Sequence record: PV357171.2
Direction: 5' to 3' (one strand)
Source of the DNA: a phage
DNA length: 64,000 bases
Of the stretch, positions 760 to 40,268 are shown piece by piece. Position numbers and translations under genes: made by a program. The number at the start of each line of letters is the position of its first letter. The first letter of the stretch is position 1. The notes beneath the pieces are model-generated. The model saw nothing but the letters and a program-made list of their open reading frames with translations. It was not told the DNA's origin and ran no database searches.

Positions 760-1341
760 ATGCACGGAATATCCTTACCAATTCCAGGGTTTGAGGAGTA
801 CTTAGTAAGTTTGGATGGGTTAGTATTTAGTATCAAATCAAACAAAATACTAACCCCAATAACCAGTAATTACGGATACTTATCTATACGTCTCCATAAA
901 AATGGTCAACAGAGAAATACCGGTGTACATAGGATTTTAGCATGTGCATTTAAGAAATTACCAAGTCTAGACTCTGAACTAGAAGTTGACCATATTAACA
1001 CAGACATTACTTATTGGGGTCTTAATAACTTACAAGTGCTCACAAAAGAGCAGCATCTAGAAAAGACTTTAAAAGATAAAGGATTTAGTAAACTAAACCA
1101 TGATAATTGTTGTAAGGATTGTGGTAAAGCTATTTCTTTAAAAGCTGAAAAATGTCAGGAGTGCTCTTCACATAAACCAAAAGATATCTCTATAACTAAA
1201 GAAATAATCGAGGTTACAGTAAGAGAGCTAGGCTGGTCAGGTGCAGGGAGAAAGTTAAGTTATTCAGATAATGGGTTGCGTAAAAGATACACTTCTTTAG
1301 GAGGCAATCCTAAAGAACTTAAAAAGTTAAAGGTACTATAG
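760..1341 (+). CDS. HNH homing endonuclease
   Basis: 193 aa; ELEVDHIN HNH-type motif and C-terminal CxxC pairs; paralog of 3431..4015. Confidence 0.75.
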   Translation: MHGISLPIPGFEEYLVSLDGLVFSIKSNKILTPITSNYGYLSIRLHKNGQQRNTGVHRILACAFKKLPSLDSELEVDHINTDITYWGLNNLQVLTKEQHLEKTLKDKGFSKLNHDNCCKDCGKAISLKAEKCQECSSHKPKDISITKEIIEVTVRELGWSGAGRKLSYSDNGLRKRYTSLGGNPKELKKLKVL

Positions 1342-1406
1342 TCTAACGGTTAGGATACTCCCCTGTCACGGGAGAGGTAGGGTTTCGATTACCCTTAGTA
1401 CCGCCA
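1332..1406 (+). tRNA. tRNA-Asp (anticodon GTC)
   Basis: Acceptor GGTACTA/TAGTACC, anticodon loop CTGTCAC, T-loop TTTCGATT, 3' GCCA; overlaps the stop of the HNH CDS. Confidence 0.75.
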
Positions 1407-1412
1407 AATTAT

Positions 1413-1489
1413 ACATCCATAGCTCAATTGGTTAGAGCTACCGCCTCTTAAGCGGTAGGTTCTAGGTTCAAGTCCTAGTGGGTGTACCA
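1413..1489 (+). tRNA. tRNA-Lys (anticodon CTT)
   Basis: Acceptor ACATCCA/TGGGTGT with one G-U pair, anticodon stem ACCGC/GCGGT, loop CTCTTAA, T-loop TTCAAGT, 3' ACCA. Confidence 0.65.
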
Positions 1490-1571
1490 AACATCAGAGC
1501 AGCGTGATGTACTGCAAAGACCCAAAGTCCGGGGTGGACTTCTTGATTCAAAGGAGCAGGCACTAATTATC

Positions 1572-1693
1572 ATTCTAGCGTGGTGGAGAGGGGACACCAG
1601 CTTGCCGAGGGTAGAAGCTCGTTCGATTCGAGTGAAAGAATGGTTCTCGTAAATCCGCACAAGTGATAGCAGGTTCAAGTCCTGCCTAGATTG
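1572..1693 (+). other. tRNA-like element(s), non-canonical
   Basis: Two T-arm-like hairpins (GCTCG-TTCGATT-CGAGT and GCAGG-TTCAAGT-CCTGC) with no clean acceptor pairing or CCA. Confidence 0.2.
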
Positions 1694-1702
1694 ACTTATT
1701 AT

Positions 1703-1776
1703 GCGTTCGTAGTTAAAAGGTATAATTTTTGGTTGCCAACCAGAAGTTGAGGGTTCGATTCCCTCCGACCGCACCA
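1703..1776 (+). tRNA. tRNA-Gly (anticodon GCC)
   Basis: Acceptor GCGTTCG/CGACCGC (one mismatch), anticodon loop TTGCCAA, T-arm GAGGG-TTCGATT-CCCTC, 3' ACCA. Confidence 0.65.
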
Positions 1777-2029
1777 AATTTAGGTTTCTGCTTCCTAGAG
1801 AACGGACTCCTAGATAAACAAGGCGATGAGTTTCCGGCCGGTTCTAGTCGCTGAAAATCCTCCCGACCAGGTAGGTGTAAGTAAATGAAAGTTTACTTAT
1901 TGAGTAGGTTCCGATAGACCGGCGGGTCTATTCTGGCATTTAAGAGAGGTCTCGCAAACTTCTTTGTCAGCCGTGGGGTTGGTAGCCTCCAGGTGGCCTA
2001 CACAATAAGTAAATTTATTAAAAATTCAT

Positions 2030-2058
2030 TTGCTATTCTGCTTAATTCTCTGTATAAT
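2030..2058 (+). promoter_or_regulatory. sigma70-type promoter (TTGCTA-N17-TATAAT) with A/T-rich upstream tract
   Basis: -35/-10 hexamers with 17-bp spacer read directly; 32 nt upstream of tRNA-Pro. Confidence 0.6.
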
Positions 2059-2089
2059 ATATTTTATAAAGTGAGTTAACAAAAATTAA

Positions 2090-2165
2090 CAGTGCGTAGC
2101 GCAGTTGGTAGCGTGGGAGCCTTGGGTGCTTCGGGTCGCAGGTTCGAGTCCTGCCGCACTGACCA
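2090..2165 (+). tRNA. tRNA-Pro (anticodon TGG)
   Basis: Acceptor CAGTGCG/CGCACTG, anticodon stem GGAGC/GCTTC, loop CTTGGGT, T-arm GCAGG-TTCGAGT-CCTGC, 3' ACCA. Confidence 0.75.
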
Positions 2166-2171
2166 AACAAT

Positions 2172-2249
2172 TGCGGGTTAGATCTCTGGTAGAGATCGCT
2201 AGTCTCATAAGCTAGAAAGAGGTAGGTTCGATTCCTGCACCCGCTTCCA
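2172..2249 (+). tRNA. tRNA-Met (anticodon CAT); could be elongator, initiator or Ile2
   Basis: D-stem GATC/GATC, anticodon stem CTAGT/GCTAG, loop CTCATAA, T-loop TTCGATT, 3' TCCA; 1:72 positions T/T unpaired. Confidence 0.65.
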
Positions 2250-2269
2250 TTTTAATAGAGGATTTCGAA

Positions 2270-2434
2270 ATGAAAGTATTTCGATTAGTAGTAAGTGACA
2301 AACGGTTAGGTAAGAATACATCAAAATCCTTACTTGCTCATTATGGTAAAAATTGGGATGAAGTAATGGCAGAGTTTAATACTAATCACCCTTACTTGAA
2401 AGTTCACTCTATTAAGGAAGTTTATGCTTATTAA
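2270..2434 (+). CDS. hypothetical small protein (54 aa)
   Basis: ATG preceded by TAGAGGA Shine-Dalgarno; below the 60-aa cutoff of the ORF track. Confidence 0.3.
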   Translation: MKVFRLVVSDKRLGKNTSKSLLAHYGKNWDEVMAEFNTNHPYLKVHSIKEVYAY

Positions 2435-2897
2435 CAGGGTGCTTCAAGCTCTAGATCTTCCAGAGCTCTTTACTATTACCGACCCCTTAATACATCGGTA
2501 TATGGAAAAGTATAATGAAATCTCTGGTAAAAAAGGGAAACTAAAATCCTCAGAATTTAAGTTCTGTTATAGAATGGCAGCATTAAACCTCTTAAAGTAC
2601 AAGAGGGAGCATAAAATCCCTATAACAGAAGGATTTGTCTATGTAATAGGTAGTCCAGCATGGCCTGGACTATATAAGATAGGTATGACAGTAGATGTGA
2701 ATGAAAGACTGTCTAGTTATCAAACATATTCGCCTTATCGTGATTACAAGTTATACCATTTCAGATTCTCCTCGGACAAGAGAAGAACTGAAAAAGCATT
2801 ACATAACCTTCTGAAGGACTACAAAGTATCAGGAGAATGGTTTGAAGTACCTCTGTTAGACGCCTTCAAACTATTAGTAGAAAATTTGGATTGCTAA
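2424..2897 (+). CDS. T5orf172 / GIY-YIG-like domain protein
   Basis: 157 aa; GFVYVIGSPAWPGLYKIGMT...ERL matches the T5orf172 (MUG113) domain pattern. Confidence 0.65.
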   Translation: MLINRVLQALDLPELFTITDPLIHRYMEKYNEISGKKGKLKSSEFKFCYRMAALNLLKYKREHKIPITEGFVYVIGSPAWPGLYKIGMTVDVNERLSSYQTYSPYRDYKLYHFRFSSDKRRTEKALHNLLKDYKVSGEWFEVPLLDAFKLLVENLDC

Positions 2898-2965
2898 CTC
2901 AACTGGATAAGAGTACCGGACCTTTAATCCGTCAGTTCTGGGTTCGAATCCCAGGCAATCCACCA
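2888..2965 (+). tRNA. tRNA, anticodon probably TTT (Lys), isotype uncertain
   Basis: Acceptor GGATTGC/GCAATCC, T-arm CTGGG-TTCGAAT-CCCAG, 3' ACCA; anticodon stem has a top mismatch and C at position 33; 5' end overlaps the upstream CDS. Confidence 0.55.
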
Positions 2966-2983
2966 ATTTCAAGAAAAACTCAG

Positions 2984-3012
2984 TTGCTTGATGCTTAATT
3001 TCTTGTTATAAT
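2984..3012 (+). promoter_or_regulatory. sigma70-type promoter (TTGCTT-N17-TATAAT)
   Basis: Hexamers with 17-bp spacer; followed by palindrome TGATGAGGAGAAATCCTCATCA. Confidence 0.55.
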
Positions 3013-3250
3013 ATTTATATAAATTGATGAGGAGAAATCCTCATCATAGTTCACTAAGGTATTAGCTCGACCTAGGACTGGCTGCCAAAAAGCACGATCC
3101 CTACGATTTGGGAGAAGTTCTAGATTAGTCCACTAGATTCAGCGGCAACTGAATAGTGTATCGGTTTTGCGAGATGACGCGGTTCCTTCCGCTCGAAGCG
3201 AAGGTGCTGTAGTTACGCCGAGCTAATAGCCTTAGTAAACTAAGGAATTT

Positions 3251-3324
3251 GGGGATATAGTTTAATGGTAGAACATCTGCTTTGCACGCAGAAGACGAGG
3301 GTTCAACTCCCTCTTTCTCCACCA
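3251..3324 (+). tRNA. tRNA-Ala (anticodon TGC)
   Basis: Acceptor GGGGATA/TTTCTCC, anticodon stem TCTGC/GCAGA, loop TTTGCAC, T-arm GAGGG-TTCAACT-CCCTC, 3' ACCA. Confidence 0.7.
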
Positions 3325-3329
3325 AATTT

Positions 3330-3414
3330 GGGGCTATGCTGGAACTGGTAGACAATACGGCCTTAGATTCCGTAGCTTAAATGCGTGGGAGTTCGAGTCT
3401 CCCTAGCCCCACCA
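3330..3414 (+). tRNA. tRNA-Leu (anticodon TAG), long variable arm
   Basis: Acceptor GGGGCTA/TAGCCCC, anticodon loop CTTAGAT, 85 nt with extra arm, T-arm GGGAG-TTCGAGT-CTCCC, 3' ACCA. Confidence 0.7.
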
Positions 3415-3430
3415 ACTTATAGGGTAATGT

Positions 3431-4015
3431 ATGCAGTTTGTACCAATAAAAGATGCACCAGGGTATTTAGTAAATGAAACAGGGGATGTGTTATCTACAT
3501 TTACTAATAAAATCTTATCAAGATATATAGTTGATGGGTACCCTGCTGTAAAATTACAGATAAATGGTAAGCAAACTTCGGTACTTATACACCGAATTAT
3601 TTCTCATGTATTTGGGGACTTATATAATCTATTTGACCCTGAATTAGAAGTAGATCACAAGGATAGAGATAGGCTGAATCTATCTAAAGATAATCTTCAA
3701 GTTTTATCAAAAATAGAACATCAGAAGAAAACTAATAAAGATAATGGATGGTCTGATAGTAGAGTACCTTGCCCCTTATGTGGAAATCTAATGCTTCAGA
3801 GATCAGTAACATGTACAAATTGTAAGCCAAAACCTACAGGAAAGTTAATAAAACCAGAATTGTCCTTAGAAGACATAACTGAAAAGGTTTTATTAATGGG
3901 GTGGGTTAAGGCAGCTAAAGATCTAGAAGTATCAGAGTCCACTTTACGTAGACGATATACTAAACTAACCGGATTAAGCCCGAAAGTATTAACAGAACAA
4001 CGGAAAAGCAAATAG
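3431..4015 (+). CDS. HNH homing endonuclease
   Basis: 194 aa; ELEVDHKDRD HNH motif, C-terminal CPLCG...CTNC zinc-finger-like pairs; paralog of 760..1341. Confidence 0.75.
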   Translation: MQFVPIKDAPGYLVNETGDVLSTFTNKILSRYIVDGYPAVKLQINGKQTSVLIHRIISHVFGDLYNLFDPELEVDHKDRDRLNLSKDNLQVLSKIEHQKKTNKDNGWSDSRVPCPLCGNLMLQRSVTCTNCKPKPTGKLIKPELSLEDITEKVLLMGWVKAAKDLEVSESTLRRRYTKLTGLSPKVLTEQRKSK

Positions 4016-4095
4016 ACTGGTGACTAAACCCGATTGGAAATCGGTTGAGTGGTAGCAATACCGCCTTATGGGTTCAACTCCCATCTTTTCCGCCA
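4002..4095 (+). tRNA. tRNA-Ser (anticodon GGA), long variable arm
   Basis: Acceptor GGAAAAG/CTTTTCC, anticodon loop TTGGAAA, 94 nt, T-arm ATGGG-TTCAACT-CCCAT, 3' GCCA; overlaps the 3' end of the HNH CDS. Confidence 0.6.
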
Positions 4096-4107
4096 AACAA
4101 TTTATAT

Positions 4108-4202
4108 GGTAGGTCAATCCAATGGCTGGCGCTGGACTCCGACTTGAAATCGGTTGATCGTAGTGATACGGTGTAAGGGTTCGATCCCCTTACCTACCTC
4201 CA
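4108..4202 (+). tRNA. tRNA-Ser (anticodon TGA), long variable arm
   Basis: Acceptor GGTAGGT/ACCTACC, anticodon loop CTTGAAA, T-arm AAGGG-TTCGATC-CCCTT, 3' TCCA. Confidence 0.6.
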
Positions 4203-4253
4203 AATCTTGAAGTATGCCGGAATCGGTAGACGGGGCTGCCTAAAAGGTTTATA

Positions 4254-4340
4254 GGGAACATCCACTCCCTGCAACATACCTCATAAAGCGGCTGAGATAA
4301 ATGGTCTATCTCGTGAAGGTTCAAGTCCTTCTGCTTCTTG
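4254..4340 (+). other. tRNA-like element, no encoded CCA, poor acceptor pairing
   Basis: Clean T-arm GAAGG-TTCAAGT-CCTTC but the acceptor needs wobbles and a mismatch, and the 3' end is TGAT. Confidence 0.25.
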
Positions 4341-4568
4341 ATACATCTATGGCTCAAAGTGTAACGGTGCTATTTGATGCTCTTGGTAAGACTTCCCCGA
4401 CATGCGTTCGGGAGTAAGCTGCTAAGACTAGAGTAGAAGAGTTTCTGAGAGCCGCCACAATTGAAAATTCGTACTCGTCTTGAGCTGCGTGCAATAGGAG
4501 ATAACTTGATTAGTATTCTAGAACATGCTAATTGAGGATGGTTTCGCTAACCCTGCGAGTTTTCAATT

Positions 4569-4645
4569 GTGGCTATATCATAATTGGTTAATGATCCTGA
4601 TTGTGAATCAGGCCTATGTGGATTCGAATTCCACTAGCCACCCCA
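4569..4645 (+). tRNA. tRNA-His (anticodon GTG)
   Basis: Acceptor GTGGCTA/TAGCCAC, anticodon stem CCTGA/TCAGG, loop TTGTGAA, T-arm GTGGA-TTCGAAT-TCCAC, 3' CCCA. Confidence 0.75.
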
Positions 4646-4670
4646 AATTAACTTAAATAGGAAATAAAAT

Positions 4671-4871
4671 ATGGCTGATTTCTGCAAGCAATGCTCCCTT
4701 GATATGTGGGGCAGAGATACTGGTGACTTATCTGGTCTGATTACAGAAGCCGAAGTCAAAGAAGGTTATAGTGCAGTTGTGATTTGTGAAGGCTGCGGTG
4801 TTATCCGTGTAGACCACACCGGTAAGCGTTTGGAAGAACCAGTTCCAATTGCGCAAGTTCCTGTAGAATAA
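4671..4871 (+). CDS. hypothetical small protein with CxxC...CxxC pairs
   Basis: 66 aa; AGGAAA upstream of ATG; CKQC and CEGC pairs suggest a zinc ribbon. Confidence 0.5.
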   Translation: MADFCKQCSLDMWGRDTGDLSGLITEAEVKEGYSAVVICEGCGVIRVDHTGKRLEEPVPIAQVPVE

Positions 4872-4879
4872 AAAATTAT

Positions 4880-4955
4880 TGGAGTGTAGCTCAACTGGCA
4901 GAGCGACGGTTTCTGACACCGTAGGTTTCTAGTTCGATCCTAGACATTCCAGCCA
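4880..4955 (+). tRNA. tRNA-Gln (anticodon CTG)
   Basis: Acceptor TGGAGTG/CATTCCA (one G-U), anticodon stem ACGGT/ACCGT, loop TTCTGAC, T-arm TCTAG-TTCGATC-CTAGA, 3' GCCA. Confidence 0.65.
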
Positions 4956-4961
4956 AACAAT

Positions 4962-5039
4962 TGGGGATTAGCTTAGCTTGGCCTAAAGCTTCGGCCTTTG
5001 AAGTCGAGATCATTGGTTCAAATCCAATATCCCCTGCCA
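4962..5039 (+). tRNA. tRNA-Gln (anticodon TTG)
   Basis: Anticodon stem TCGGC/GTCGA, loop CTTTGAA, T-arm ATTGG-TTCAAAT-CCAAT, 3' GCCA; 1:72 unpaired. Confidence 0.6.
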
Positions 5040-5047
5040 AACAATAA

Positions 5048-5123
5048 GCGATTAAGCACACGGGTTGTGCCGCAGGCCTTCCAAGCCCCGCTGAGTAGGG
5101 TTCGATTCCCTCTAGCCGCTCCA
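5048..5123 (+). tRNA. tRNA, isotype uncertain (possibly Gly, anticodon TCC)
   Basis: Acceptor GCGATTA/TAGCCGC with one mismatch, T-loop TTCGATT, 3' TCCA; anticodon stem is weak. Confidence 0.5.
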
Positions 5124-5140
5124 ACTTTAAGGAAACATTT

Positions 5141-5362
5141 ATGCACGTTTTTGAGTTTCGTGATAAAAGTAACAATAAACGAGTTATTGTTATTGGAGAA
5201 ACATACCTAGCATACGAACAAACTGATGGCTCTGTTATCTTGAATGATGAGAAAGCAAATTTTAGCTTTTATCCAGAAGAACCTTATGAAGAGTTTCGTA
5301 CTAAGTTTCTTTTACCAGACTGGCTAGCAGTAGCCGAGCAACGAGAATCCGAAGATGGCTGA
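5141..5362 (+). CDS. hypothetical protein
   Basis: 73 aa; AAGGAAA Shine-Dalgarno before ATG. Confidence 0.5.
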   Translation: MHVFEFRDKSNNKRVIVIGETYLAYEQTDGSVILNDEKANFSFYPEEPYEEFRTKFLLPDWLAVAEQRESEDG

Positions 5363-5519
5363 TAACCTAAAATTAAGGGTTGACAAACAAAAGAAATACG
5401 TTGAGGTTGAATTAGGCGAAGAACGCTTAAAGCTAACTTTCGAGTTTCTTCAGCAGTTGGCTATGACAGTCATGACTGATAAGTCTCCTGTTATTGAAAA
5501 AGAAATCCCGTTGAAATAG
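5355..5519 (+). CDS. hypothetical small protein (54 aa)
   Basis: ATG overlapping the upstream stop; below ORF-track cutoff; no strong RBS. Confidence 0.3.
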   Translation: MADNLKLRVDKQKKYVEVELGEERLKLTFEFLQQLAMTVMTDKSPVIEKEIPLK

Positions 5520-5527
5520 GAAGCAAC

Positions 5528-5920
5528 ATGGAGTTTACTTGTTTAAATTGCGGAATCACAAAACCTAAAAGTAGGGGTTCCGCAGGTAAGTATTGTGGTG
5601 CTGCTTGTCAGCAGGAGTACCAGACAAAGCAAAAAGTATTAAAGTGGCTGGCAGGTGAAGAACCTGGTTATACTGGTAAAGCTGCACAATTAAAACCTTT
5701 TGTTAGGAAGTGGCTGTGGGATACTCGTGGTACTGCTTGTGAAGTATGTGGTTGGGATGGGAAACATCCAATTGACGGAGCAGTTTTAACTGAGGTAGAT
5801 CATATAGATGGAGATGCAACTAACTGTTCTCCAGAAAATCTAAAGATTCTCTGCCCTAACTGTCACTCTATGACACCTACGCATAGGGCCAGAAATAGAG
5901 TTTCAACAAGACAACGATAG
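5528..5920 (+). CDS. HNH endonuclease (classical HNH with zinc-binding cysteines)
   Basis: 130 aa; EVDHIDGDATNCSPENLKILCPNCH motif. Confidence 0.75.
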   Translation: MEFTCLNCGITKPKSRGSAGKYCGAACQQEYQTKQKVLKWLAGEEPGYTGKAAQLKPFVRKWLWDTRGTACEVCGWDGKHPIDGAVLTEVDHIDGDATNCSPENLKILCPNCHSMTPTHRARNRVSTRQR

Positions 5921-5994
5921 CTCTTAAAGCATTGCTGGCGATGCAACGGTCTTGTAAACCGTGGAACCGGGTTCGATTCCTGGTGGGAGCACCA
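5920..5994 (+). tRNA. tRNA-Thr (anticodon TGT)
   Basis: Acceptor GCTCTTA/TGGGAGC, D-stem GCAT/ATGC, anticodon stem ACGGT/ACCGT, loop CTTGTAA, T-loop TTCGATT, 3' ACCA. Confidence 0.7.
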
Positions 5995-6010
5995 AAATTA
6001 AAAAATTCAT

Positions 6011-6039
6011 TTGCCTTCTCTCTTATTTCTTGTTATAAT
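6011..6039 (+). promoter_or_regulatory. sigma70-type promoter (TTGCCT-N17-TATAAT) with conserved leader
   Basis: Same module as other early promoters: AAAAATTCATTTGC...TATAAT...ATAAATTAATGAGAGG...ATG. Confidence 0.6.
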
Positions 6040-6069
6040 ATTTATATAAATTAATGAGAGGGAAACCAA

Positions 6070-6363
6070 ATGAAACGTTATCTTTCTGTCGTGTTCCAAA
6101 CTGGTGGTCAACGCTACACTTATGAATTTCCTGAGTCCTGGAAAATTAAAGAAGGTGATCAAGTTGTTGTATTAACACCTCGTGAAGGCTTCAAAGTAGT
6201 AACGGTTAAACAAGTATTTCCAAAAGATCACGAACCATCTAAGGCTATTCAGTACAAGATGATTCATGGTCTGGTACGAAAAGTACCTAGAACAGAAGTC
6301 GAAGTAGATAAAACTGGGGAAGCTAAATACCAGTATACCTCTTACTTAGATGAAATGATGTAA
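6070..6363 (+). CDS. hypothetical protein
   Basis: 97 aa; GAGAGGGAAACC leader before ATG. Confidence 0.55.
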   Translation: MKRYLSVVFQTGGQRYTYEFPESWKIKEGDQVVVLTPREGFKVVTVKQVFPKDHEPSKAIQYKMIHGLVRKVPRTEVEVDKTGEAKYQYTSYLDEMM

Positions 6364-6364
6364 T

Positions 6365-6439
6365 GCTCTGATAGTTCAACAGGTTAGAACAGACGACCGA
6401 TAATCGTCAAATCTTGGTTCGATCCCAAGTCGGAGTACC
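6365..6439 (+). tRNA. tRNA-Ile (anticodon GAT)
   Basis: Acceptor GCTCTGA/TCGGAGT with wobbles, anticodon stem GACGA/TCGTC, loop CCGATAA, T-arm CTTGG-TTCGATC-CCAAG, 3' ACCA. Confidence 0.6.
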
Positions 6440-6446
6440 AAATTAT

Positions 6447-6522
6447 AGTTAGTTGGCAGAGTGGTTATGCACCTCCTTCATACGGAGCGACTACAGTGGT
6501 TCAAATCCACTACTAACTACCA
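6447..6522 (+). tRNA. tRNA with anticodon CAT (Met or lysidine-type Ile2)
   Basis: Acceptor AGTTAGT/ACTAACT, anticodon loop TTCATAC, T-arm AGTGG-TTCAAAT-CCACT, 3' ACCA. Confidence 0.65.
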
Positions 6523-30624: not shown

Positions 30625-32295
30625 ATGATTATTTCCGCAGAAAAACAAACCGTTATCCTGAAAATGGCCGCTGACTTTAATTTCTATGGTAAACGTCTGC
30701 GCGCTACTAAACTGGAGGTCTGCGACGATATATCAAAAGCAGTCTACGATACAACGAAACATTCCACCGCCATTTGTGATTGGCTGGAAGCAAACAAACC
30801 AGCGAAACCAAAAGCGGCAAAAGTAGCAAAAGCCATTAAAAACGATGAGCGCCCCGAAGCGGCGGGGATTGTTTCTAGCACGGTTGAACAGTGGGAAGTA
30901 AAACAGGGTAAACGCTTTATTATTACGTCGATTCAGAATAATACTTTCCCGCATAAAAACTTTTTAGCCTCGCTTGAACAATTTGCTAAATATATCGGCG
31001 CTGATTTGCTTGTTTCTAAGTATATTTATAATAAAAACGGTTTTCAAAATGGCGAGGGCGCGGATGGAATAAAGTATGATTCCGCGTTCGATAAATATAT
31101 TTGCAGCAAAAACGTGTTTTTACATAACCGCCGTTTTGCTTTCATGGCTGAAATTAATGTTTTGCCAACCGCAGATTATCCGCTTTCTGGATTCGCAGAA
31201 ACTGCTACCGCGCTCAATATTGAAGGGCTGGCAATTGGTCACGCTAAAATTACCGCCGAAAGCGTGCCAGCTTTAAAAGGTGAAGTAGTGCGCCGTATGT
31301 ATTCAACCGGAACGGCAACGCTCAAAAACTACATTCAGCAGAAAGCAGGACAAAAGGCCGAGGCGCTGCATAACTTCGGTGCGCTTATTGTTGAGTTCGA
31401 TGATGATGGGGAATTTTTTGTTCGCCAGCTTGAAACAATGGACGAAAGCGGGGTGTTTTATGATCTGAATGTTTGCGCTACTCCTGCCGGATGCTATGAA
31501 ACATCGGGGCATGTTTTAGGCTTGCAGTATGGCGATATTCACGCCGAAAAATTAGATGAGGAGTGCGCCGCCGCATCTTGGGGGCATGGTGATACCTATG
31601 GGCTAGTAGATATTCTTAAACCAAAATATCAGTTTGTGCATGACGTGCATGATTTTACATCGCGCAATCATCATAACCGCGCATCCGGTGTATTCCTAGC
31701 GAAACAGTATGCCGCCGGACGTGATAAAGTTCTGGATGATCTTATCGATACCGGTCGCGTGCTGGAATCAATGGAACGTGATTTTAGTCAAACAATCATT
31801 GTTGAATCGAATCACGATTTGGCGCTATCCCGTTGGCTTGATGATCGTAATGCTAACATTAAGGACGATCCCGCCAACGCCGAACTATATCACCGCCTGA
31901 ATGCTGCGATTTACGGAGCTATTGCAGAAAAAGACGACACCTTCAACGTGCTAGATTATGCGCTGCGCAAGGTTGCAGGTTGTGAATTTAACGCCATTTT
32001 CCTAACGACTGACCAATCTTTCAAGATTGCAGGTATTGAATGCGGCGTACACGGTCACAATGGCATTAACGGGAGCCGTGGCAATCCGAAACAATTTAAG
32101 AAATTGGGCAAATTAAACACCGGACACACTCATACCGCCAGCATTTACGGCGGCGTTTATACCGCTGGCGTGGCTGGTAGTCTGGATATGGGTTACAACG
32201 TTGGCGCGTCAAGCTGGACACAAACGCATTTAATTACCTATGCAAACGGTCAACGCACTTTGATTGACTTTAAAAACGGTAAATTCTTTGCGTAA
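30625..32295 (+). CDS. A1: A1-like pre-early protein, calcineurin-like metallophosphoesterase fold
   Basis: 556 aa; GDIH, NHD, GHNG and GHTH metallophosphoesterase motifs in order; length matches T5 A1 as recalled. Confidence 0.65.
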   Translation: MIISAEKQTVILKMAADFNFYGKRLRATKLEVCDDISKAVYDTTKHSTAICDWLEANKPAKPKAAKVAKAIKNDERPEAAGIVSSTVEQWEVKQGKRFIITSIQNNTFPHKNFLASLEQFAKYIGADLLVSKYIYNKNGFQNGEGADGIKYDSAFDKYICSKNVFLHNRRFAFMAEINVLPTADYPLSGFAETATALNIEGLAIGHAKITAESVPALKGEVVRRMYSTGTATLKNYIQQKAGQKAEALHNFGALIVEFDDDGEFFVRQLETMDESGVFYDLNVCATPAGCYETSGHVLGLQYGDIHAEKLDEECAAASWGHGDTYGLVDILKPKYQFVHDVHDFTSRNHHNRASGVFLAKQYAAGRDKVLDDLIDTGRVLESMERDFSQTIIVESNHDLALSRWLDDRNANIKDDPANAELYHRLNAAIYGAIAEKDDTFNVLDYALRKVAGCEFNAIFLTTDQSFKIAGIECGVHGHNGINGSRGNPKQFKKLGKLNTGHTHTASIYGGVYTAGVAGSLDMGYNVGASSWTQTHLITYANGQRTLIDFKNGKFFA

Positions 32296-33120: not shown

Positions 33121-33855
33121 ATGAATCAAGTTAAAACGAATATTACCCGTAATTTCCCGCATATTTCCCGCGTCATGATTTGGGATCTTGATGGCACTAT
33201 CGTTAATTCATTCCATCGTGTCGCGCCTTGCTTTGATAGCGACGGGAATTTAAATTTAAATAAGTATAAAAATGAGGCTTGCAAACATGATTTAATAATG
33301 CAAGATACTTTATTGCCTTTGGTGGAATATATGCGCCAATGCATGAATGACGCAAATACTTTAAACATTATTTGCACCGCTCGACTGATGAGCAAATCAG
33401 ACTATTATTATTTGCGTAAACAAGGATTGCGCGGGCGTGGTGATAGTAATATCCGTGTATTTTCCCGCGATACACTGCATAAATATTTTGAGGCTGATAA
33501 GGTTAGCGAAATATACCACAGCAAAGACGCAGTTTATAAATCGTATTATTTTGAGCTATTCAAACAACTATATCCGAACGCTGATTTTACAATGATTGAT
33601 GATCATAAAGGTGTATTATCAGCGGCAGCGTCATACGGATTTAAAACGCTGGACGCGCAAGCCGTTAATGATATTCTATCAATCGGCGTGGCATTGATAG
33701 GCGGAACCTTTATTGATGAATCTCTCGATGATGATAATGATTATCAGTTCCTAGCGGACCGATTGAAATTATGTTGGGAAAGTATGACCGAGGAAGAACG
33801 CGCAGAATATAGTTGCAGCCCGCAACAATATATTGAGAAATTAAAAGTTGCGTAA
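33121..33855 (+). CDS. dmp: HAD-superfamily phosphatase, 5'-deoxyribonucleotidase (dmp-like)
   Basis: 244 aa; DLDGT HAD motif I near the N-terminus; location in the pre-early block. Confidence 0.6.
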   Translation: MNQVKTNITRNFPHISRVMIWDLDGTIVNSFHRVAPCFDSDGNLNLNKYKNEACKHDLIMQDTLLPLVEYMRQCMNDANTLNIICTARLMSKSDYYYLRKQGLRGRGDSNIRVFSRDTLHKYFEADKVSEIYHSKDAVYKSYYFELFKQLYPNADFTMIDDHKGVLSAAASYGFKTLDAQAVNDILSIGVALIGGTFIDESLDDDNDYQFLADRLKLCWESMTEEERAEYSCSPQQYIEKLKVA

Positions 33856-34017: not shown

Positions 34018-34557
34018 TTAACTGTTTAATTGGGCAACGTCTGGTATACTTCCTTTGAACATCTCCTGTATTGCAAAGTCACCATGAAATGTCCTTCTTA
34101 GTAAATTTGCATAATTTACGGCATCTTCTAATCCGCTATAGGGAAAGTACTTAGTAGTACCCCTTATCAGCCCCTGTTTATCATGTAATCTTACCATCCA
34201 CTTCTGAAGTTCTTTATGCCATGTAACATTTAGATAGCCTGATGATGCTCTTGAGATTCTGCCATTATGATTATTCTCTGTAATTGAAGCCTCTCTTAAA
34301 TTTGACCATCTATTATTTAGTTTATTCCTATCTATGTGGTCTACACATTCCTCTGGCCATCTATTCTCCATAATAACAAAAGCTACTTGATGTGCATAAG
34401 CTTTAAACCCTCGATACTTAAGCTGCCTATATCCCCTATTTAAAGTACCTGCTTCTTTACCCTTACGATTGCCTCTTTTCCAGGTAAAAACTCCGGTTTC
34501 GGGATCATAAGCAAATACTTCTTGTATTTCCTGTATGTTTAAATTATTCTTCATCAC
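34018..34557 (-). CDS. HNH endonuclease with AP2-like DNA-binding domain
   Basis: 179 aa; CVDHIDRNKLNNRWSNL HNH core; intact paralog of the frameshifted 18437 gene. Confidence 0.7.
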   Translation of the reverse strand: MMKNNLNIQEIQEVFAYDPETGVFTWKRGNRKGKEAGTLNRGYRQLKYRGFKAYAHQVAFVIMENRWPEECVDHIDRNKLNNRWSNLREASITENNHNGRISRASSGYLNVTWHKELQKWMVRLHDKQGLIRGTTKYFPYSGLEDAVNYANLLRRTFHGDFAIQEMFKGSIPDVAQLNS

Positions 34558-34789
34558 TCACCTTTGCCCGAAATCTCTTCCGCGACGCCCGAGATCCATC
34601 CGACCACTCCCGCTCAAACTCCGCACGTTTCTCGTCAAACTTCCGCTCCCTTTCCGCAATCTTCCGCTCCCTTTCCGCAATCTCCCGCGATACTTCCGCA
34701 GTATACTTACGATGCTTGTTAATAGCCGCAGTCATTCCGAAAACTCCCGCAAGTACCCCGATAATAAAAGCAATTATAATACTAAACAT
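34544..34789 (-). CDS. hypothetical membrane protein with charged repeat tail
   Basis: 81 aa; N-terminal transmembrane helix; REIAERERKIAERERK repeat. Confidence 0.45.
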   Translation of the reverse strand: MFSIIIAFIIGVLAGVFGMTAAINKHRKYTAEVSREIAERERKIAERERKFDEKRAEFEREWSDGSRASRKRFRAKVSDEE

Positions 34790-34976
34790 CTAATTCCCTC
34801 TCAATTTGCAGAATACGGGTACTATCACAACGTTGGAGTTCTACTAATTTTTCTAGAGCAAATTGTTGTTGTTTTACCTGAGCTTCTAGAGTTTTTAGGC
34901 GAACATACGCGTTATAAGAAACAATGAAAGTTGCCCAGACTAGTATTACTATTAGTGTAGCTACTACTTCCATCAT
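34782..34976 (-). CDS. small membrane / coiled-coil protein
   Basis: 64 aa; N-terminal transmembrane helix; ATGA-coupled to neighbours. Confidence 0.4.
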   Translation of the reverse strand: MMEVVATLIVILVWATFIVSYNAYVRLKTLEAQVKQQQFALEKLVELQRCDSTRILQIERELDV

Positions 34977-35080
34977 TTACGTTTCTCCGTTAGTAAAGTT
35001 TCAATTCTAGCTAAGTGATTATCTAAAATACATTGCCCAATAATCATAATTCCCAGTAATGAAATAATTACCCATTCCAT
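34975..35080 (-). CDS. small membrane protein (35 aa), paralog of 35080..35235
   Basis: Begins MEWVII and ends RIETLLTEKRK; GAGGAG Shine-Dalgarno; below track cutoff. Confidence 0.3.
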
Positions 35081-35235
35081 TATTTACGCTCCTCTAATAA
35101 AGTTTCAATTCTAGATAACCTATTACTCAACTGCATTAATTTAACCTCTACTTGGGTTACAGAGGTATCTATTACACGTAAGCCTACAAAGAGAAGTATC
35201 AGTAGGATGAATATGCCAATAATTACCCATTCCAT
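35080..35235 (-). CDS. small membrane protein (51 aa)
   Basis: Begins MEWVII and ends RIETLLEERK; GGTGGA Shine-Dalgarno; track ORF extends to 35265. Confidence 0.35.
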   Translation of the reverse strand: MEWVIIGIFILLILLFVGLRVIDTSVTQVEVKLMQLSNRLSRIETLLEERK

Positions 35236-35363
35236 TAAATCCACCCCGCCATAGCTGCTAACCAAAAACCTACGAAGATTAGGAATAATACAAAACCAAA
35301 TCCGTAAATATTAATCCACGCTTCGTACACTTCTCCGCGTCTGTTCTTTCTTTTGTTTGACAT
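35235..35363 (-). CDS. small membrane protein (42 aa)
   Basis: Internal ATG after AGGAG chosen (track extends to 35426). Confidence 0.3.
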   Translation of the reverse strand: MSNKRKNRRGEVYEAWINIYGFGFVLFLIFVGFWLAAMAGWI

Positions 35364-35539
35364 ATCTTTCCTGCTCCTATAAATATAGTATTTGGAATAT
35401 TTTATAATTTGCGCATAGCCAACCATGCTCGTGATTTCCTAGAAGGGCTTTTCACTTTCTTGCATAGTGTTTTCTGCTAGTACACCATCCAAGAAATAAA
35501 AAATTTAGTTTACTTGGATGTCTTTTTGCTTTATACTAA

Positions 35540-35806
35540 TTACAAGTAATTAGATTGCTCTAGTTTAAATTTACAATCACCATATTTAAGGTCAAACTGA
35601 CTGAGATCCCACCATCCAAACTTAGTACGGAGCTGTACTACTGGAAAGCGATCTCCCTTAATACGAACTTTTTGAACCTTGAGACCGTAATGTTCTTCTC
35701 CCTCACCACCAAAAGATTTTACAAATCCAGTACAAAATGGTTTGGGAGCAGGTGCACAACCAGATAACATAACTGCGGCAACTAGTGTAATCACAAACTT
35801 TTTCAT
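35540..35806 (-). CDS. llp: lipoprotein, Llp-like (candidate receptor-blocking superinfection-exclusion protein)
   Basis: 88 aa; signal peptide with LSGC lipobox; divergently placed next to the receptor-binding protein gene as in T5. Confidence 0.6.
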   Translation of the reverse strand: MKKFVITLVAAVMLSGCAPAPKPFCTGFVKSFGGEGEEHYGLKVQKVRIKGDRFPVVQLRTKFGWWDLSQFDLKYGDCKFKLEQSNYL

Positions 35807-35891
35807 ATTTATCTCTCCATTTCTAATTTATGAATATATTATAGCAAAATAGAGAGATGAAAGCAAATACATTTTTATAATAGGAGATTAT

Positions 35892-37649
35892 ATGGGTTTT
35901 TTCGCTGGAAAATATAGCGATGGTAAGACCGTACTATCTTTAAATACTGAATCTGGTGGTGACATTAATCGTCACTATAGTCCAAATACCAATAGTATTT
36001 TTCATAGTGATATGCCATTTGTCCTAGTTGATGGTACTTATGAGTCTGGGTTAGGTGATGCCGGTAATGGGTTTTTTGTATGTCAGATGCCCTCTGACAT
36101 AATAAATATTAAATCCAATGACCCCGGTAGAGTTATATTAACTGCTATTGAGATTAATGGTACTCACAGAGCTTTTCTTAATGGTACTCAGAGTAAGGTG
36201 GGTCAAACTATAGTTGCCACTCAAGCAGATCCTTTTAGATCTTTTGCTAGTGTTTCCCAGACTAGTGGATTTGCATTTGGTAATAGCCTGGCATCTGGTA
36301 CATATAACTATAATCCATCTATAGGGCATGAAGAATCTATTTCTAGGAATGGTACAGGGGGTACTACCTTACATAGTACGTATCATGGTATAGTTAGGCC
36401 GGGTGCAGGAGCTCCAGTAGGTATTACTGTTGCAGAAGCTTTTGCACAGTTAGGATTCCCTACTAATAGTAGTACAGTACCTATAGATGGTAATAACCAA
36501 TATTACTGGGACCCAGGATGGATGTCTCCTTTAGGATCAGCACACAGAGGGCACGATTGGTTTTATGTTTGTAACTCTAACATACGTGGGTATGGTGGGG
36601 TAAGACAAGGTCTTCCTGGTAATGTAAATACTATGTATCATGATGGAGGTAACAGATTTGTTTGTAGGGGGTCTACAACTAATTTAGCTAACCAATCTGG
36701 TAACGCTACAATATTACAGGATTGGTATAACATAACCCCTACTAAAGTTATTTGGTATGTTCTGAATTTAAGATACTCAAATGGTGGTATGAGTATCTCT
36801 GGTAATCCTTTTACTGGTTCAGATATTCTTATATCTCCTTCTAATTTCATAATTAAAGGGGTTAGTCTTCCCAATACTGGATACAAGTTTATTAACCAGA
36901 ACGCTTTTGGTAACTTAGGTTATAGACCAGATATGGAGTATATAGGAAATAACGCAGCGTATACCGGGGTTTTTGGGGATACCACGGCAAGGTGTGAACT
37001 TGTAGGATCTAGTAATGGGGGTTTGTGGTCTCCTGTAGATTATGGAGGGGCTAAATCTCAAATTAGTATTTATAAATTCGGAGCTGGTAAGCAATGGTAT
37101 GTAAACTCTAGGGATAATACTATCGGTAATGAACACGGGGTTGTTTGGGGACCATCAGCAGTTCCATTACGACTTTTTGGTGGAAATGTAGGTAGCTCTT
37201 ACATGGGGGATGATATTACTCCCAGCTACCCGGGAACAGGGGATAGATACGTTGGTTTATCAACTATTGGGCTAGGTATACCGGGTGGCAATGCTACAGT
37301 AATTCTTACCACTGAAGTTATATCAGGTAACCTTAACTGTGCAGGTGTTCCTGCTAATACATGGAATAACGGTGTGTTTCAAGTGCAAGGAAGAAGAGCA
37401 TATAGCTATAGTAATGGAGATGCAATATTCCACCAGATTTTAACATTACCAGTAGGGTATTTAGTACCTTTTCATACTACATCTGCTTTTAGATACACAC
37501 CTAACAATGCCCTAAGTAGAAATAGTTTTATATACACTGCTAAAAATCTGGGGAATGGAAATGTAGAGTTAGGGGTAGTTATGCACGTAAGTTTAGGTAG
37601 TGCAGTTTTCCTACCGAGATTAAGAGTAACAGTTCAACGCCTTACCTAA
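35892..37649 (+). CDS. receptor-binding tail protein (pb5-like)
   Basis: 585 aa; N-terminus MGFFAGKY...SGGD...IFHSDM and C-terminal ...QRLT resemble T5 pb5 as recalled; paired with llp. Confidence 0.6.
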
Positions 37650-37659
37650 AGGAGGAAAT

Positions 37660-38142
37660 ATGGCAAATGATGTATTAGTACCAGATCTTATGTCCCCTGA
37701 AGGGATGGATGTAATTGAAGCATATTTACAGTGTGGGAGTGATGTGCCTTCTGCCGCACGTAGTCTTGGAATGTCCGAAATTGCTTTTAGAGATATTATG
37801 AATCGTAGTGAAGTTAAGAACTACTTAAATGATATTTTTATGGAGAGTGGTTTCCGTAACAGAGATCGTTTATTTGGTGTTCTGGATGAAGTTATCAAGC
37901 GTAAACTAGAGGAACTAGAAGAAACTGGCATGGGTTCTGACCAAGATATTATGGATATTCTCTGGAAAGCACATAAAATGAAAATGGAAGAAATGAAAAT
38001 GATGGTAGAACTGGAGAAAGTTAAGGCAGCAGCCCGTACTCCAGCTAACCAGACCAACATCCAGAATAATATTATTGCTGGAGCTGGGGATCAAAACTAC
38101 ATGGACTTAATTACTTCCCTAGCTACTGGAGGTAAGAAGTAA
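37660..38142 (+). CDS. putative terminase small subunit
   Basis: 160 aa immediately upstream of and overlapping the large terminase gene; call is by position only. Confidence 0.4.
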
Positions 38143-39458
38143 TGGAAGTATCAAGACCTTACGTTAATACAGTAGATGTTATTGATTTCGGAATAGATAA
38201 ACGTTTCTTTCGTCTACCTGTTTCGGGAATACTAGCACAAGAAGGTATTACACCTAATGGTCCTCAAATAGCGATTATTAATGCTCTAGAGGATCCTAGA
38301 CATCGTTTTGTAACGGCGTGTGTATCACGCCGTGTAGGTAAATCCTTCATCGCATATACTCTTGGGTTCCTAAAATTGCTGGAACCTAATGTGAAGGTGT
38401 TAGTAGTTGCTCCTAACTATTCACTGGCCAACATCGGATGGTCTCAGATTCGTGGTCTTATTAAAAAATATGGCCTACAAACTGAACGTGAGAACGCTAA
38501 AGATAAGGAAATTGAGTTAGCTAATGGTTCTCTGTTTAAACTAGCTTCCGCTGCTCAGGCTGACTCCGCAGTTGGACGTTCATATGATTTTATCATCTTT
38601 GACGAGGCGGCAATTTCCGATGTGGGTGGTGATGCCTTCAGGGTTCAGCTGCGTCCTACCCTAGATAAACCTAATTCTAAGGCTCTATTTATTTCCACCC
38701 CTCGTGGAGGTAACTGGTTTAAAGAGTTTTACGCCTACGGATTTGATGATACGTTGCCTAACTGGGTATCTATTCATGGTACATATCGTGATAACCCTCG
38801 TGCTGACCTGAATGATATAGAAGAAGCACGTCGTACGGTTAGTAAAAACTACTTCCGCCAGGAATATGAAGCTGACTTCTCTGTATTTGAAGGTCAGATT
38901 TTTGATACTTTCAATGCTATTGACCATGTTAAAGACCTTAAGGGTATGCGTCATTTCTTTAAAGATGATGAAGCATTCGAAACGTTGCTTGGTATCGACG
39001 TTGGTTATCGTGATCCTACAGCAGTTCTTACTATTAAGTATCATTACGATACGGATACTTACTATGTATTAGAAGAGTACCAGCAGGCGGAGAAAACTAC
39101 AGCTCAGCATGCTGCTTACATTCAGCACTGTATAGATCGTTATAAAGTTGATCGTATTTTTGTTGACTCCGCGGCAGCTCAGTTCCGTCAAGACTTAGCT
39201 TATGAGCATGAAATTGCATCAGCTCCAGCTAAAAAATCTGTCCTAGATGGCCTAGCATGCCTGCAAGCACTGTTCCAACAGGGTAAGATTATTGTAGATG
39301 CCTCATGCTCCTCCTTAATTCATGCACTGCAGAACTATAAGTGGGATTTCCAAGAAGGTGAAGAAAAATTATCCCGTGAAAAACCACGTCATGATGCTAA
39401 CTCTCACCTTTGTGATGCGCTGCGCTACGGAATTTACTCTATTTCCCGTGGTAAATAA
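38142..39458 (+). CDS. terminase large subunit
   Basis: 438 aa; Walker A SRRVGKS and Walker B DFIIFDEAA, C-terminal nuclease-like region. Confidence 0.8.
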   Translation: MEVSRPYVNTVDVIDFGIDKRFFRLPVSGILAQEGITPNGPQIAIINALEDPRHRFVTACVSRRVGKSFIAYTLGFLKLLEPNVKVLVVAPNYSLANIGWSQIRGLIKKYGLQTERENAKDKEIELANGSLFKLASAAQADSAVGRSYDFIIFDEAAISDVGGDAFRVQLRPTLDKPNSKALFISTPRGGNWFKEFYAYGFDDTLPNWVSIHGTYRDNPRADLNDIEEARRTVSKNYFRQEYEADFSVFEGQIFDTFNAIDHVKDLKGMRHFFKDDEAFETLLGIDVGYRDPTAVLTIKYHYDTDTYYVLEEYQQAEKTTAQHAAYIQHCIDRYKVDRIFVDSAAAQFRQDLAYEHEIASAPAKKSVLDGLACLQALFQQGKIIVDASCSSLIHALQNYKWDFQEGEEKLSREKPRHDANSHLCDALRYGIYSISRGK

Positions 39459-39629: not shown

Positions 39630-40268
39630 ATGGGTCGACAAAAGCTAACAATAAAAGATATAAATACTAGATTAGCTGATCGTGGAATCCAAATTGTCGG
39701 TGAATATGTAAACCAGCGTACAAAAACAGTATTTAGATGCCAGAGAGCACACGTTTGGGAAGCAACACCACATTCTGTACTTCATATGAGGAGAGGTTGT
39801 CCACACTGCTCCAATAATACAATATCGTTAGATGAAGTTAGTAACAGAATATCTAATATAGGGTATACTCTGTTAAGCAGCTATACTAATGCTAAAACAA
39901 AACTACATCTACGTTGCAATAATGGGCATGACTGTTTCATTACCCTAGATGGATTGACTCAAGGTAAAAGATGTCCTTATTGTTCTCTTAAATGGGAAAA
40001 TGGCGGATTCCTCTATATCATGTCCTCCTGCAGAGGTACTAAAGTAGGCATAAGCTTATACCCTGAGAAGCGGCTGAACGAGGTTAAAAGAGAATCTGGA
40101 TTTTCTGACATATACTTGTTCACCGTGTATTATCTGCCGGATAGAGAGACTGCTTTAGATTTAGAGAAGGAAGTTCACAGAAAATATTATAATAAAAACT
40201 GTGGGTTTTCTAATTTTACAGGAAGTACGGAATTTTTTAATGTTGCTCCTGAAGATGCTTTCAAATAG
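39630..40268 (+). CDS. putative homing endonuclease with zinc-ribbon N-terminus and T5orf172/GIY-YIG-like C-terminus
   Basis: 212 aa; CPHCS and CPYCS pairs, then GGFLYIMSS...GTKVGIS...EKRL resembling the T5orf172 pattern. Confidence 0.45.
   Translation: MGRQKLTIKDINTRLADRGIQIVGEYVNQRTKTVFRCQRAHVWEATPHSVLHMRRGCPHCSNNTISLDEVSNRISNIGYTLLSSYTNAKTKLHLRCNNGHDCFITLDGLTQGKRCPYCSLKWENGGFLYIMSSCRGTKVGISLYPEKRLNEVKRESGFSDIYLFTVYYLPDRETALDLEKEVHRKYYNKNCGFSNFTGSTEFFNVAPEDAFK

Follow-up and report, generated by a model that had tools for sequence, protein, structure and literature searches.

A predicted BtuB-specific host-recognition and superinfection-exclusion cassette in a T5-like phage

The analysed window comprises 64,000 nucleotides of a phage genome (record PV357171.2), in which two genes pointing away from each other are separated by an 85-bp intergenic region (35807-35891). 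The gene on the (-) strand, llp (35540-35806), encodes an 88-aa lipoprotein according to the ORF call and to Pfam and PHROGs matches, and the gene on the (+) strand, rbp (35892-37649), encodes a 585-aa tail-tip receptor-binding protein (RBP), the homologue of Oad of T5 and Hrs of BF23. They are followed immediately by terS (37660-38142) and terL (38142-39458), in the same order as in T5. The preliminary description of this locus had stated that the lipoprotein and the 585-aa tail protein diverge as in T5, and the ORF map agrees with this. The same gene order, i.e. a small divergent exclusion gene, rbp, terS and terL, was found in the annotated records of T5, BF23, DT571/2 and other phages, and T5-like phages keep their receptor-binding gene at a fixed site, upstream of the terminase genes. 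Over 87-93% of its length, the 24-kb stretch around the locus is 91-93% identical in nucleotides to ECOP18, SP01, mar004NP2, SPLA5b and IME178 of Tequintavirus. Judged from its sequence, the phage is a T5-like one (Tequintavirus) and an isolate distinct from the nearest records, from which it differs at the level of approximately 92% nucleotide identity.

In a blastn comparison with T5 (NC_005859) the DNA similarity of 86-95% stopped at position 35412 and restarted at position 37633. The only match to T5 between these two points, of 70%, covered both gene starts (35796-35911). The terS gene is 98.3% identical to its T5 counterpart, compared with 49-58% for llp, the spacer and rbp. This difference, and the drop of similarity at 35412 and 37633, indicate a sharply bounded cassette of about 2.2 kb (35413-37632), comprising llp, the spacer and nearly all of rbp, that has been replaced relative to T5.

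The spacer is 96.5-97.6% identical to the spacers of BF23, DT571/2 and IME178. A promoter-like element for llp was read by eye on its (-) strand, with TTGCTT at 35866-35861, a gap of 17 nt and TATAAT at 35843-35838, followed downstream by the GGAGAG ribosome-binding site of llp. The AGGAG ribosome-binding site ahead of the rbp ATG also lies in the spacer. A scan for sigma-70 consensus promoters and terminators found no element inside the 85 bp; it missed the llp element because the -35 hexamer fits the consensus in three of six positions only. The TTGCTT/TATAAT pair is accordingly a putative promoter, a reading rather than a demonstration. Hypothetical early and late promoters are annotated in the same spacer in the BF23 record. 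A (+) strand TATAAT (35876-35881) was considered as the promoter of rbp and rejected, being too near the start codon.

The Llp precursor begins with MKKFVITLVAAVMLSGC, as translated from the ORF. The signal peptide with its lipobox was read directly from the translation as residues 1-17 (MKKFVITLVAAVMLSG/C; 35756-35806, (-) strand). The lipobox is L-S-G-C, with the cysteine at position 17, and residues 1-18 matched Pfam LPAM_1 (E 6e-5). Lipidation is thus predicted at Cys17, with which the mature protein would begin. Under the +2 rule of Lol sorting in E. coli, the alanine found at position +2 of Llp fits sorting to the outer membrane. The protein matched phrog_1119, 'Cor superinfection exclusion protein', with E 2.2e-26, and T5 Llp belongs to the same family (E 1.1e-19). 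The two lipoproteins share 25% identity; Cys24 and Cys78 of the window Llp (precursor numbering) match, on a reading of the sequences, the position of the disulphide between Cys11 and Cys58 of mature T5 Llp. Since the phrog_1119 profile, the lipobox signal peptide and the similarly placed cysteine pair are common to both, they are distant homologues and not unrelated proteins, and the same three features place the window protein among the Cor/Llp lipoproteins.

A much higher similarity links it to the Llp of BtuB phages. Of its 88 residues, the window Llp shares 86 with BF23 Llp and 85 with DT571/2 Llp; overall it is 96.6-97.7% identical to the BF23 and DT57C-DT571/2 Llps, and the llp nucleotide sequences are 96.5-97.6% identical. 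The window RBP is therefore paired with a predicted BF23-type lipoprotein for receptor blocking and superinfection exclusion. It has been shown previously that BF23 Llp blocks BtuB and that plasmid-borne expression of DT57C Llp, a protein one residue away from that of BF23, lowers the plating of BF23 and of the DT57C group of phages by a factor of more than 100, T5 being unaffected (PMC4728585). Two residues are private to the window Llp, A7T and A35E; the latter, situated in the mature protein, is absent from all ten compared Llps of the BtuB clade that carry a lipobox. A search of PDB sequences with Llp gave matches at chance level only (E 0.45 or worse), so that no solved relative of BF23-type Llp was found there.

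The RBP matched phrog_4815, 'receptor binding tail protein', over residues 1-585 (E 2.8e-274), and had no match in Pfam. Full-length homology, together with the slot next to terS and terL and the divergence from a small exclusion gene, places it in the pb5/Oad family of Markadamsvirinae (phrog_4815). dN/dS of rbp against five close relatives was 0.03-0.06, with dS of up to 0.58, so rbp is a real gene under strong purifying selection within its allele group. The length of T5 pb5, given in the preliminary description as about 640 aa, is exactly 640 aa in NC_005859. A tblastn comparison over the full length (100% coverage, E 1e-49) gave 30.1% identity between the two proteins, and global alignments gave 33-34%; high full-length identity, which the same description had named as the observation that would speak against a receptor other than FhuA, was not seen. 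The description was also right that the first 40 or so residues and the C-terminal QRLT, identical in both proteins, resemble pb5, but not that the similarity ends there. HMMER aligned residues 1-141 and 270-531 to the pb5 chains of PDB 8b14 and 8a8c (E 2e-50), and the blocks 286-345 and 391-435 are 43-57% identical to T5 pb5, as high as the N-terminus (53% over residues 1-45). T5 pb5 was the only protein found in the PDB sequence search with the RBP, and a structure of a BtuB-type RBP was absent from it.

In the pb5-FhuA structure pb5 carries four inserted loops, of which L1 (Gln115) and L2 (Phe170) touch the FhuA plug and L4 corresponds to residues 570-590 (PMC9586334). Residues ~91-285 of the window RBP align with L1 and L2. 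In the alignment L1, L2 and L4 are all unconserved, and most of the T5 segment 560-600, which holds L4, is absent: the window has only residues 528-547 there, with gaps of 12 and 6 residues among others. The window protein, 30-34% identical to T5 pb5, thus does not conserve the features specific for the FhuA-binding type, L4 being largely deleted.

Reference RBPs were extracted from annotated records and aligned, with the exception of the EPS7 RBP, whose gene is split by frameshifts in its record. Alignment to pb5 homologues with known receptors was the check proposed in the preliminary description. The window RBP was 73.8% identical to the RBP of DT571/2, 70.8% to that of S114, 68.3% to that of BF23 and 56-57% (56.0% in the matrix) to that of the Yersinia phage phiR2-01, all of which use BtuB, against 33.3% for T5 (FhuA) and 31.8% for H8 (FepA). 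In a neighbour-joining tree of 13 sequences, a single tree calculated without bootstrap, it fell within the BtuB clade as the sister of DT571/2, with phiR2-01 as the deepest branch of that clade. It thus groups with the BtuB types, at 56-74% identity to the classical ones and 97-99% to that of SPLA5b and DaisyDussoix, and apart from T5 and H8, at 32-33%.

The nearest proteins form a group of 585-aa alleles carried by Tequintavirus phages: IME178 (99.1% identity), ECOP18 (98.6%), DaisyDussoix (97.9%), SPLA5b (97.8%), and Cit2 and JLBYU40 (97.3% each). The allele is also present in SP01 and SSP1, and of the 541 phage records that matched, about 100 carry it at 95% identity or more. The aligned alleles are equally long, show no gaps and are flanked in the same way, by a BF23-type llp, the 85-bp spacer and terS. 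Between 5 and 16 residues separate the window RBP from them; there are 13 differences from SPLA5b (572 of 585 residues identical) and 12 from DaisyDussoix, several of which are located in the presumed receptor-contact region. In the alignment of six alleles, T33 is the sole residue that occurs only in the window. T33 of the RBP and A7T and A35E of Llp are the only private features of the cassette, and there is no indication of a functional change.

Receptor data exist for two members of this group. A TraDIS transposon screen flagged btuB as a susceptibility gene for SPLA5b, and deletion of btuB in S. Typhimurium abolished SPLA5b plaques (PMC10949491). Outside this group, DT57C too is reported to lose infectivity on btuB mutants (PMC4728585). 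For DaisyDussoix (Bas31) the terminal receptor is given as BtuB in the S5 table of the BASEL study, in which surface-protein mutants, among them btuB knockouts made for the purpose, were used to test the isolates by spotting (PMC8594841). According to that study, BtuB is the target of the vast majority of T5-like phages.

The RBP is conserved very unevenly when compared with other BtuB-type alleles. Residues 1-105 (35892-36206), the conserved N-terminal part and the presumed attachment end on the pb4 side, are 90-100% identical to ABTNLsp4; the role of this part towards pb4 is transferred from the T5 structure (PMC9586334). Residues ~91-285 (36162-36746) are the most variable among the BtuB-type alleles and represent the presumed receptor-contact region, with a sliding identity of 30-70% to BF23, S114 and ABTNLsp4 versus 93-100% to DaisyDussoix. 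Within residues 106-285 the identity was 40-70% to the BF23, S114 and ABTNLsp4 types and 57-83% to DT571/2. Residues 286-420 are again 80-97% identical to ABTNLsp4 and mostly 70-97% to BF23 and S114. A second variable stretch, residues ~436-555 (37197-37556), is 50-80% identical to other BtuB-type alleles and contains the segment corresponding to pb5 loop L4. The protein is therefore a mosaic: residues 1-105 and 286-420 are near the BF23/ABTNLsp4 type, and for residues 106-180 and 526-585 DT571/2 is the nearer one. The same mosaic pattern was described earlier for DT57C and ascribed to recombination within the module, tolerated as the receptor is unchanged; one Llp serves diverged RBP alleles, all of them using BtuB (PMC4728585).

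Across the BtuB-type phages with mosaic RBPs, llp and the spacer are 96-98% identical. The suggestion of the preliminary description that the lipoprotein co-evolved to block the receptor holds at the level of the receptor, BtuB, and fails at the level of the RBP sequence, since the same Llp (96-98%) accompanies RBPs that are 68-74% identical. Alleles only 30-60% identical over the presumed contact loops and combined with one near-invariant Llp are the pattern to expect of an Llp that works allosterically, from the periplasmic side. Should this be true, Llp would work on conserved parts of BtuB and not by mimicking or masking the RBP site, and allele switching within rbp could evade mutations in the BtuB loops with self-exclusion kept. 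The reading as a whole, in which the 585-aa allele and BF23 Hrs are structurally different solutions for one receptor, BtuB, is put forward only tentatively and is rather doubtful.

The cassette is very probably the BtuB-specific host-recognition and superinfection-exclusion module of a T5-like phage. BtuB was chosen as the receptor because of the position of the RBP in the BtuB clade, its near-identity to the SPLA5b and DaisyDussoix proteins, the BF23-type Llp and the low identity to the H8 and S124 RBPs. The assignment is made by homology, at 98% identity to RBPs of phages with receptor data, and is almost certainly correct. Points against it are the differences from SPLA5b and DaisyDussoix in the presumed contact region and the A35E change of Llp. 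The expectation of a receptor other than FhuA, with BtuB or FepA given as examples, is thereby borne out for BtuB.

Binding to FhuA in the manner of T5 pb5, with the divergence of the protein due to drift without a change of receptor, would be compatible with its being a genuine full-length pb5 homologue, and FhuA has in fact been proposed as the receptor of Cit2, whose RBP is 97.3% identical to that of the window (PMC12980165). That proposal was derived from a stated identity of 96.9% between the Cit2 RBP and the T5 RBP of NC_005859 (PMC12980165), a figure that could not be reproduced with this record: the Cit2 RBP and NC_005859 oad are 33.7% identical, and the Llp of Cit2 is of the BF23 type. 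The possibility that NC_005859 carries a non-canonical RBP, which would explain the 96.9%, was rejected, its oad encoding the canonical 640-aa pb5. On its sequence Cit2 is most likely a BtuB phage. For the window RBP itself, the identity to T5 pb5 of only 30-34%, the unconserved or deleted inserting loops L1, L2 and L4, the partner Llp of the BtuB-blocking BF23 type with 25% identity to T5 Llp, and the btuB requirement of SPLA5b, with an RBP 97.8% identical, make FhuA a scarcely credible receptor.

The other receptor named in the preliminary description, FepA, is used by the RBPs of H8 and S124, and the first 45 residues of the window RBP are 80-83% identical to H8. This likeness lies in the tail-facing part of the protein and not in the receptor-facing one, and over the whole length the identity to the H8 and S124 RBPs, which form a separate branch of the tree, is 32%. 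The partner gene points in the same direction: the llp slot of H8 and S124 is occupied by an acidic gene of phrog_16810 that does not encode a lipoprotein, whereas a Cor/Llp lipoprotein is encoded in the window. Moreover, fepA::kan gave no phenotype with any BASEL phage, DaisyDussoix included (PMC8594841), and the probability of FepA being the receptor is practically negligible. It could also be proposed that the RBP binds BtuB in a way unlike BF23 Hrs, or accepts in addition BtuB orthologues or another TonB-dependent transporter, which would broaden or shift the host range. The drop of identity to BF23 Hrs from 68% overall to only 30-60% over residues 91-285 could be read in this way, and so could the occurrence of the allele in phages whose isolation hosts were Escherichia, Salmonella, Shigella and Citrobacter and the continued use of BtuB by diverged alleles, as seen with DT57C (PMC4728585). 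Nothing points to a second receptor, deletion of btuB alone being enough to abolish SPLA5b plaques. BtuB is conserved enough among these enterobacteria to account for the spread of hosts, and in T5-like phages the lateral tail fibres and the O-antigen are the main determinants of host range. A broadened or shifted specificity of this kind is thus highly unlikely.

With BtuB as the preferred receptor, the cassette could function as follows. A single RBP molecule, the homologue of T5 pb5/Oad and BF23 Hrs, would cap the straight central tail fibre at its tip, with the N-terminal part (residues ~1-105) probably facing the fibre as in the T5 model. It would bind BtuB, the outer-membrane vitamin B12 transporter, and once bound the phage would be committed to ejecting its DNA. 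On the model of the T5 pb5-FhuA complex, the variable stretches ~91-285 and 436-555 may carry the loops that contact BtuB. In the infected cell Llp would be made early from the putative spacer promoter, receive its lipid at Cys17 and be directed to the outer membrane. There it may bind BtuB at the periplasmic face, lock the plug and fold the extracellular loops inward, as seen in the Llp-FhuA structure; binding of a TonB-dependent receptor by Llp at the periplasmic face is known structurally only for T5 Llp and FhuA (PMC9586334). BtuB inactivated as a phage receptor in this way would exclude superinfecting BtuB-dependent relatives and spare the progeny adsorption to debris.

It is predicted that the phage requires BtuB, is excluded by cells expressing BF23-type Llp and selects btuB mutants. 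Such a receptor prediction is useful for the design of phage cocktails spread across receptors. The case of Cit2, with its 97%-identical RBP, calls for caution, as here at least one published receptor assignment is apparently mistaken; in T5-like phages the receptor should be assigned from the partner gene and from alignment to real pb5, Hrs and H8 references.

The module is already known. It is of the BF23 type, described in the 1990s-2000s, extended by the work on DT57C and the commonest one among T5-like phages; the window adds one more sequence of a well-sampled allele and raises no new question. The Hrs/Llp module of BF23 (Mondigler et al., summarised in PMC4728585) has the same architecture and the same receptor class, with an RBP of 595 aa (68% identity) instead of 585 aa, and the RBP of DT571/2 has 586 aa (74%). 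The pb5 (Oad)/Llp module of T5 consists of homologous proteins in the same slot and the same divergent layout, and its mechanism is presumed to be the same; it differs in the receptor, FhuA versus BtuB as assigned to the window by analogy, in the size of the RBP (640 aa, 30-34% identity) and in Llp (25%). Structures are available for the T5 system, FhuA-Llp as a crystal structure (PMC9586334) and pb5-FhuA as PDB 8a8c and 8b14. The RBP of H8 and S124, of 637 aa, belongs to the same family and occupies the same slot, with 32% overall identity. The closest known counterpart is the allele group of SPLA5b, DaisyDussoix, IME178 and ECOP18, in which the RBP is near-identical to that of the window, while the surrounding genome is about 92% identical at the nucleotide level.

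Citrobacter phage Cit2 (OP745948) was described as carrying a receptor-binding protein (RBP) 96.9 % identical to that of T5, and FhuA was inferred to be its receptor (PMC12980165). In the deposited sequences the identity between the Cit2 RBP (1201-2958) and the T5 RBP (NC_005859, 4428-6350) amounts to 33.7 %. Since Cit2 possesses the 585-aa BtuB-type allele, 97.3 % identical to the window RBP, and also encodes an Llp of the BF23 type, the published receptor call is doubtful and FhuA was probably assigned wrongly.

Two residues set the Llp encoded in the window apart from the BF23-type Llps. Residue 7 (35786-35788) is Thr and residue 35 (35704-35706), located within the mature protein, is Glu, and both positions are occupied by Ala in all nine BF23-type Llps compared. 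The more distant Llp of phage phiR2-01 also departs from the Ala-type Llps at position 35.

Phages H8 (AC171169; on the minus strand and upstream of the RBP gene) and S124 (767-1078), both of the FepA type, encode in the llp position an acidic protein of 103-108 aa, annotated in the S124 record as a 'receptor blocking protein'. It belongs to phrog_16810, a family with no function assigned, has neither a signal peptide nor a lipobox, and is not a Cor/Llp lipoprotein. RBP/llp modules of the T5-like type, nearly identical to the enterobacterial ones, were also present in the phage collection under the names of Listeria phage LM 4-11-1 (OR846838), Campylobacter phage A148 (MG065642) and Corynebacterium phage CPphiVTCCBPA_418 (PQ773600); contamination or mislabelling of these records is the most likely explanation.

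Downstream of llp, on the minus strand, the window contains four small ORFs of 61-81 aa (34544-35426), the counterparts of T5.159-162, which encode single-transmembrane proteins and are conserved, being 86-92 % identical to T5 and BF23 in nucleotide sequence. Their PHROGs matches are mostly to families of no known function, with one designated 'membrane protein'. The 130-aa ORF that overlaps them on the plus strand (34535-34927) is probably spurious.

An ORF of 179 aa encoding an HNH endonuclease (34018-34557, minus strand; Pfam HNH_3, E 7.6e-12; phrog_99, E 7e-52) is flanked by the T5.162-like membrane-protein gene and a dmp-like gene (33121-33855). Since T5 has no counterpart of the segment 33875-34568, a homing endonuclease was probably inserted here. 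Directly after terL lies another endonuclease-like ORF (39630-40268).

On the llp side of the module, between 30625 and 35426, the pre-early genes, namely that of an A1-like DNA transfer protein (30625-32295) and the dmp-like gene, directly adjoin the genes of the small membrane proteins. It is at the corresponding junction that the right terminal repeat starts in T5, and the window therefore looks like an assembly in which the long terminal repeat was collapsed, or else like a genome that was joined circularly. The window also contains a cluster of 15 tRNA genes (1332-6522, plus strand), which is typical for T5-like genomes.
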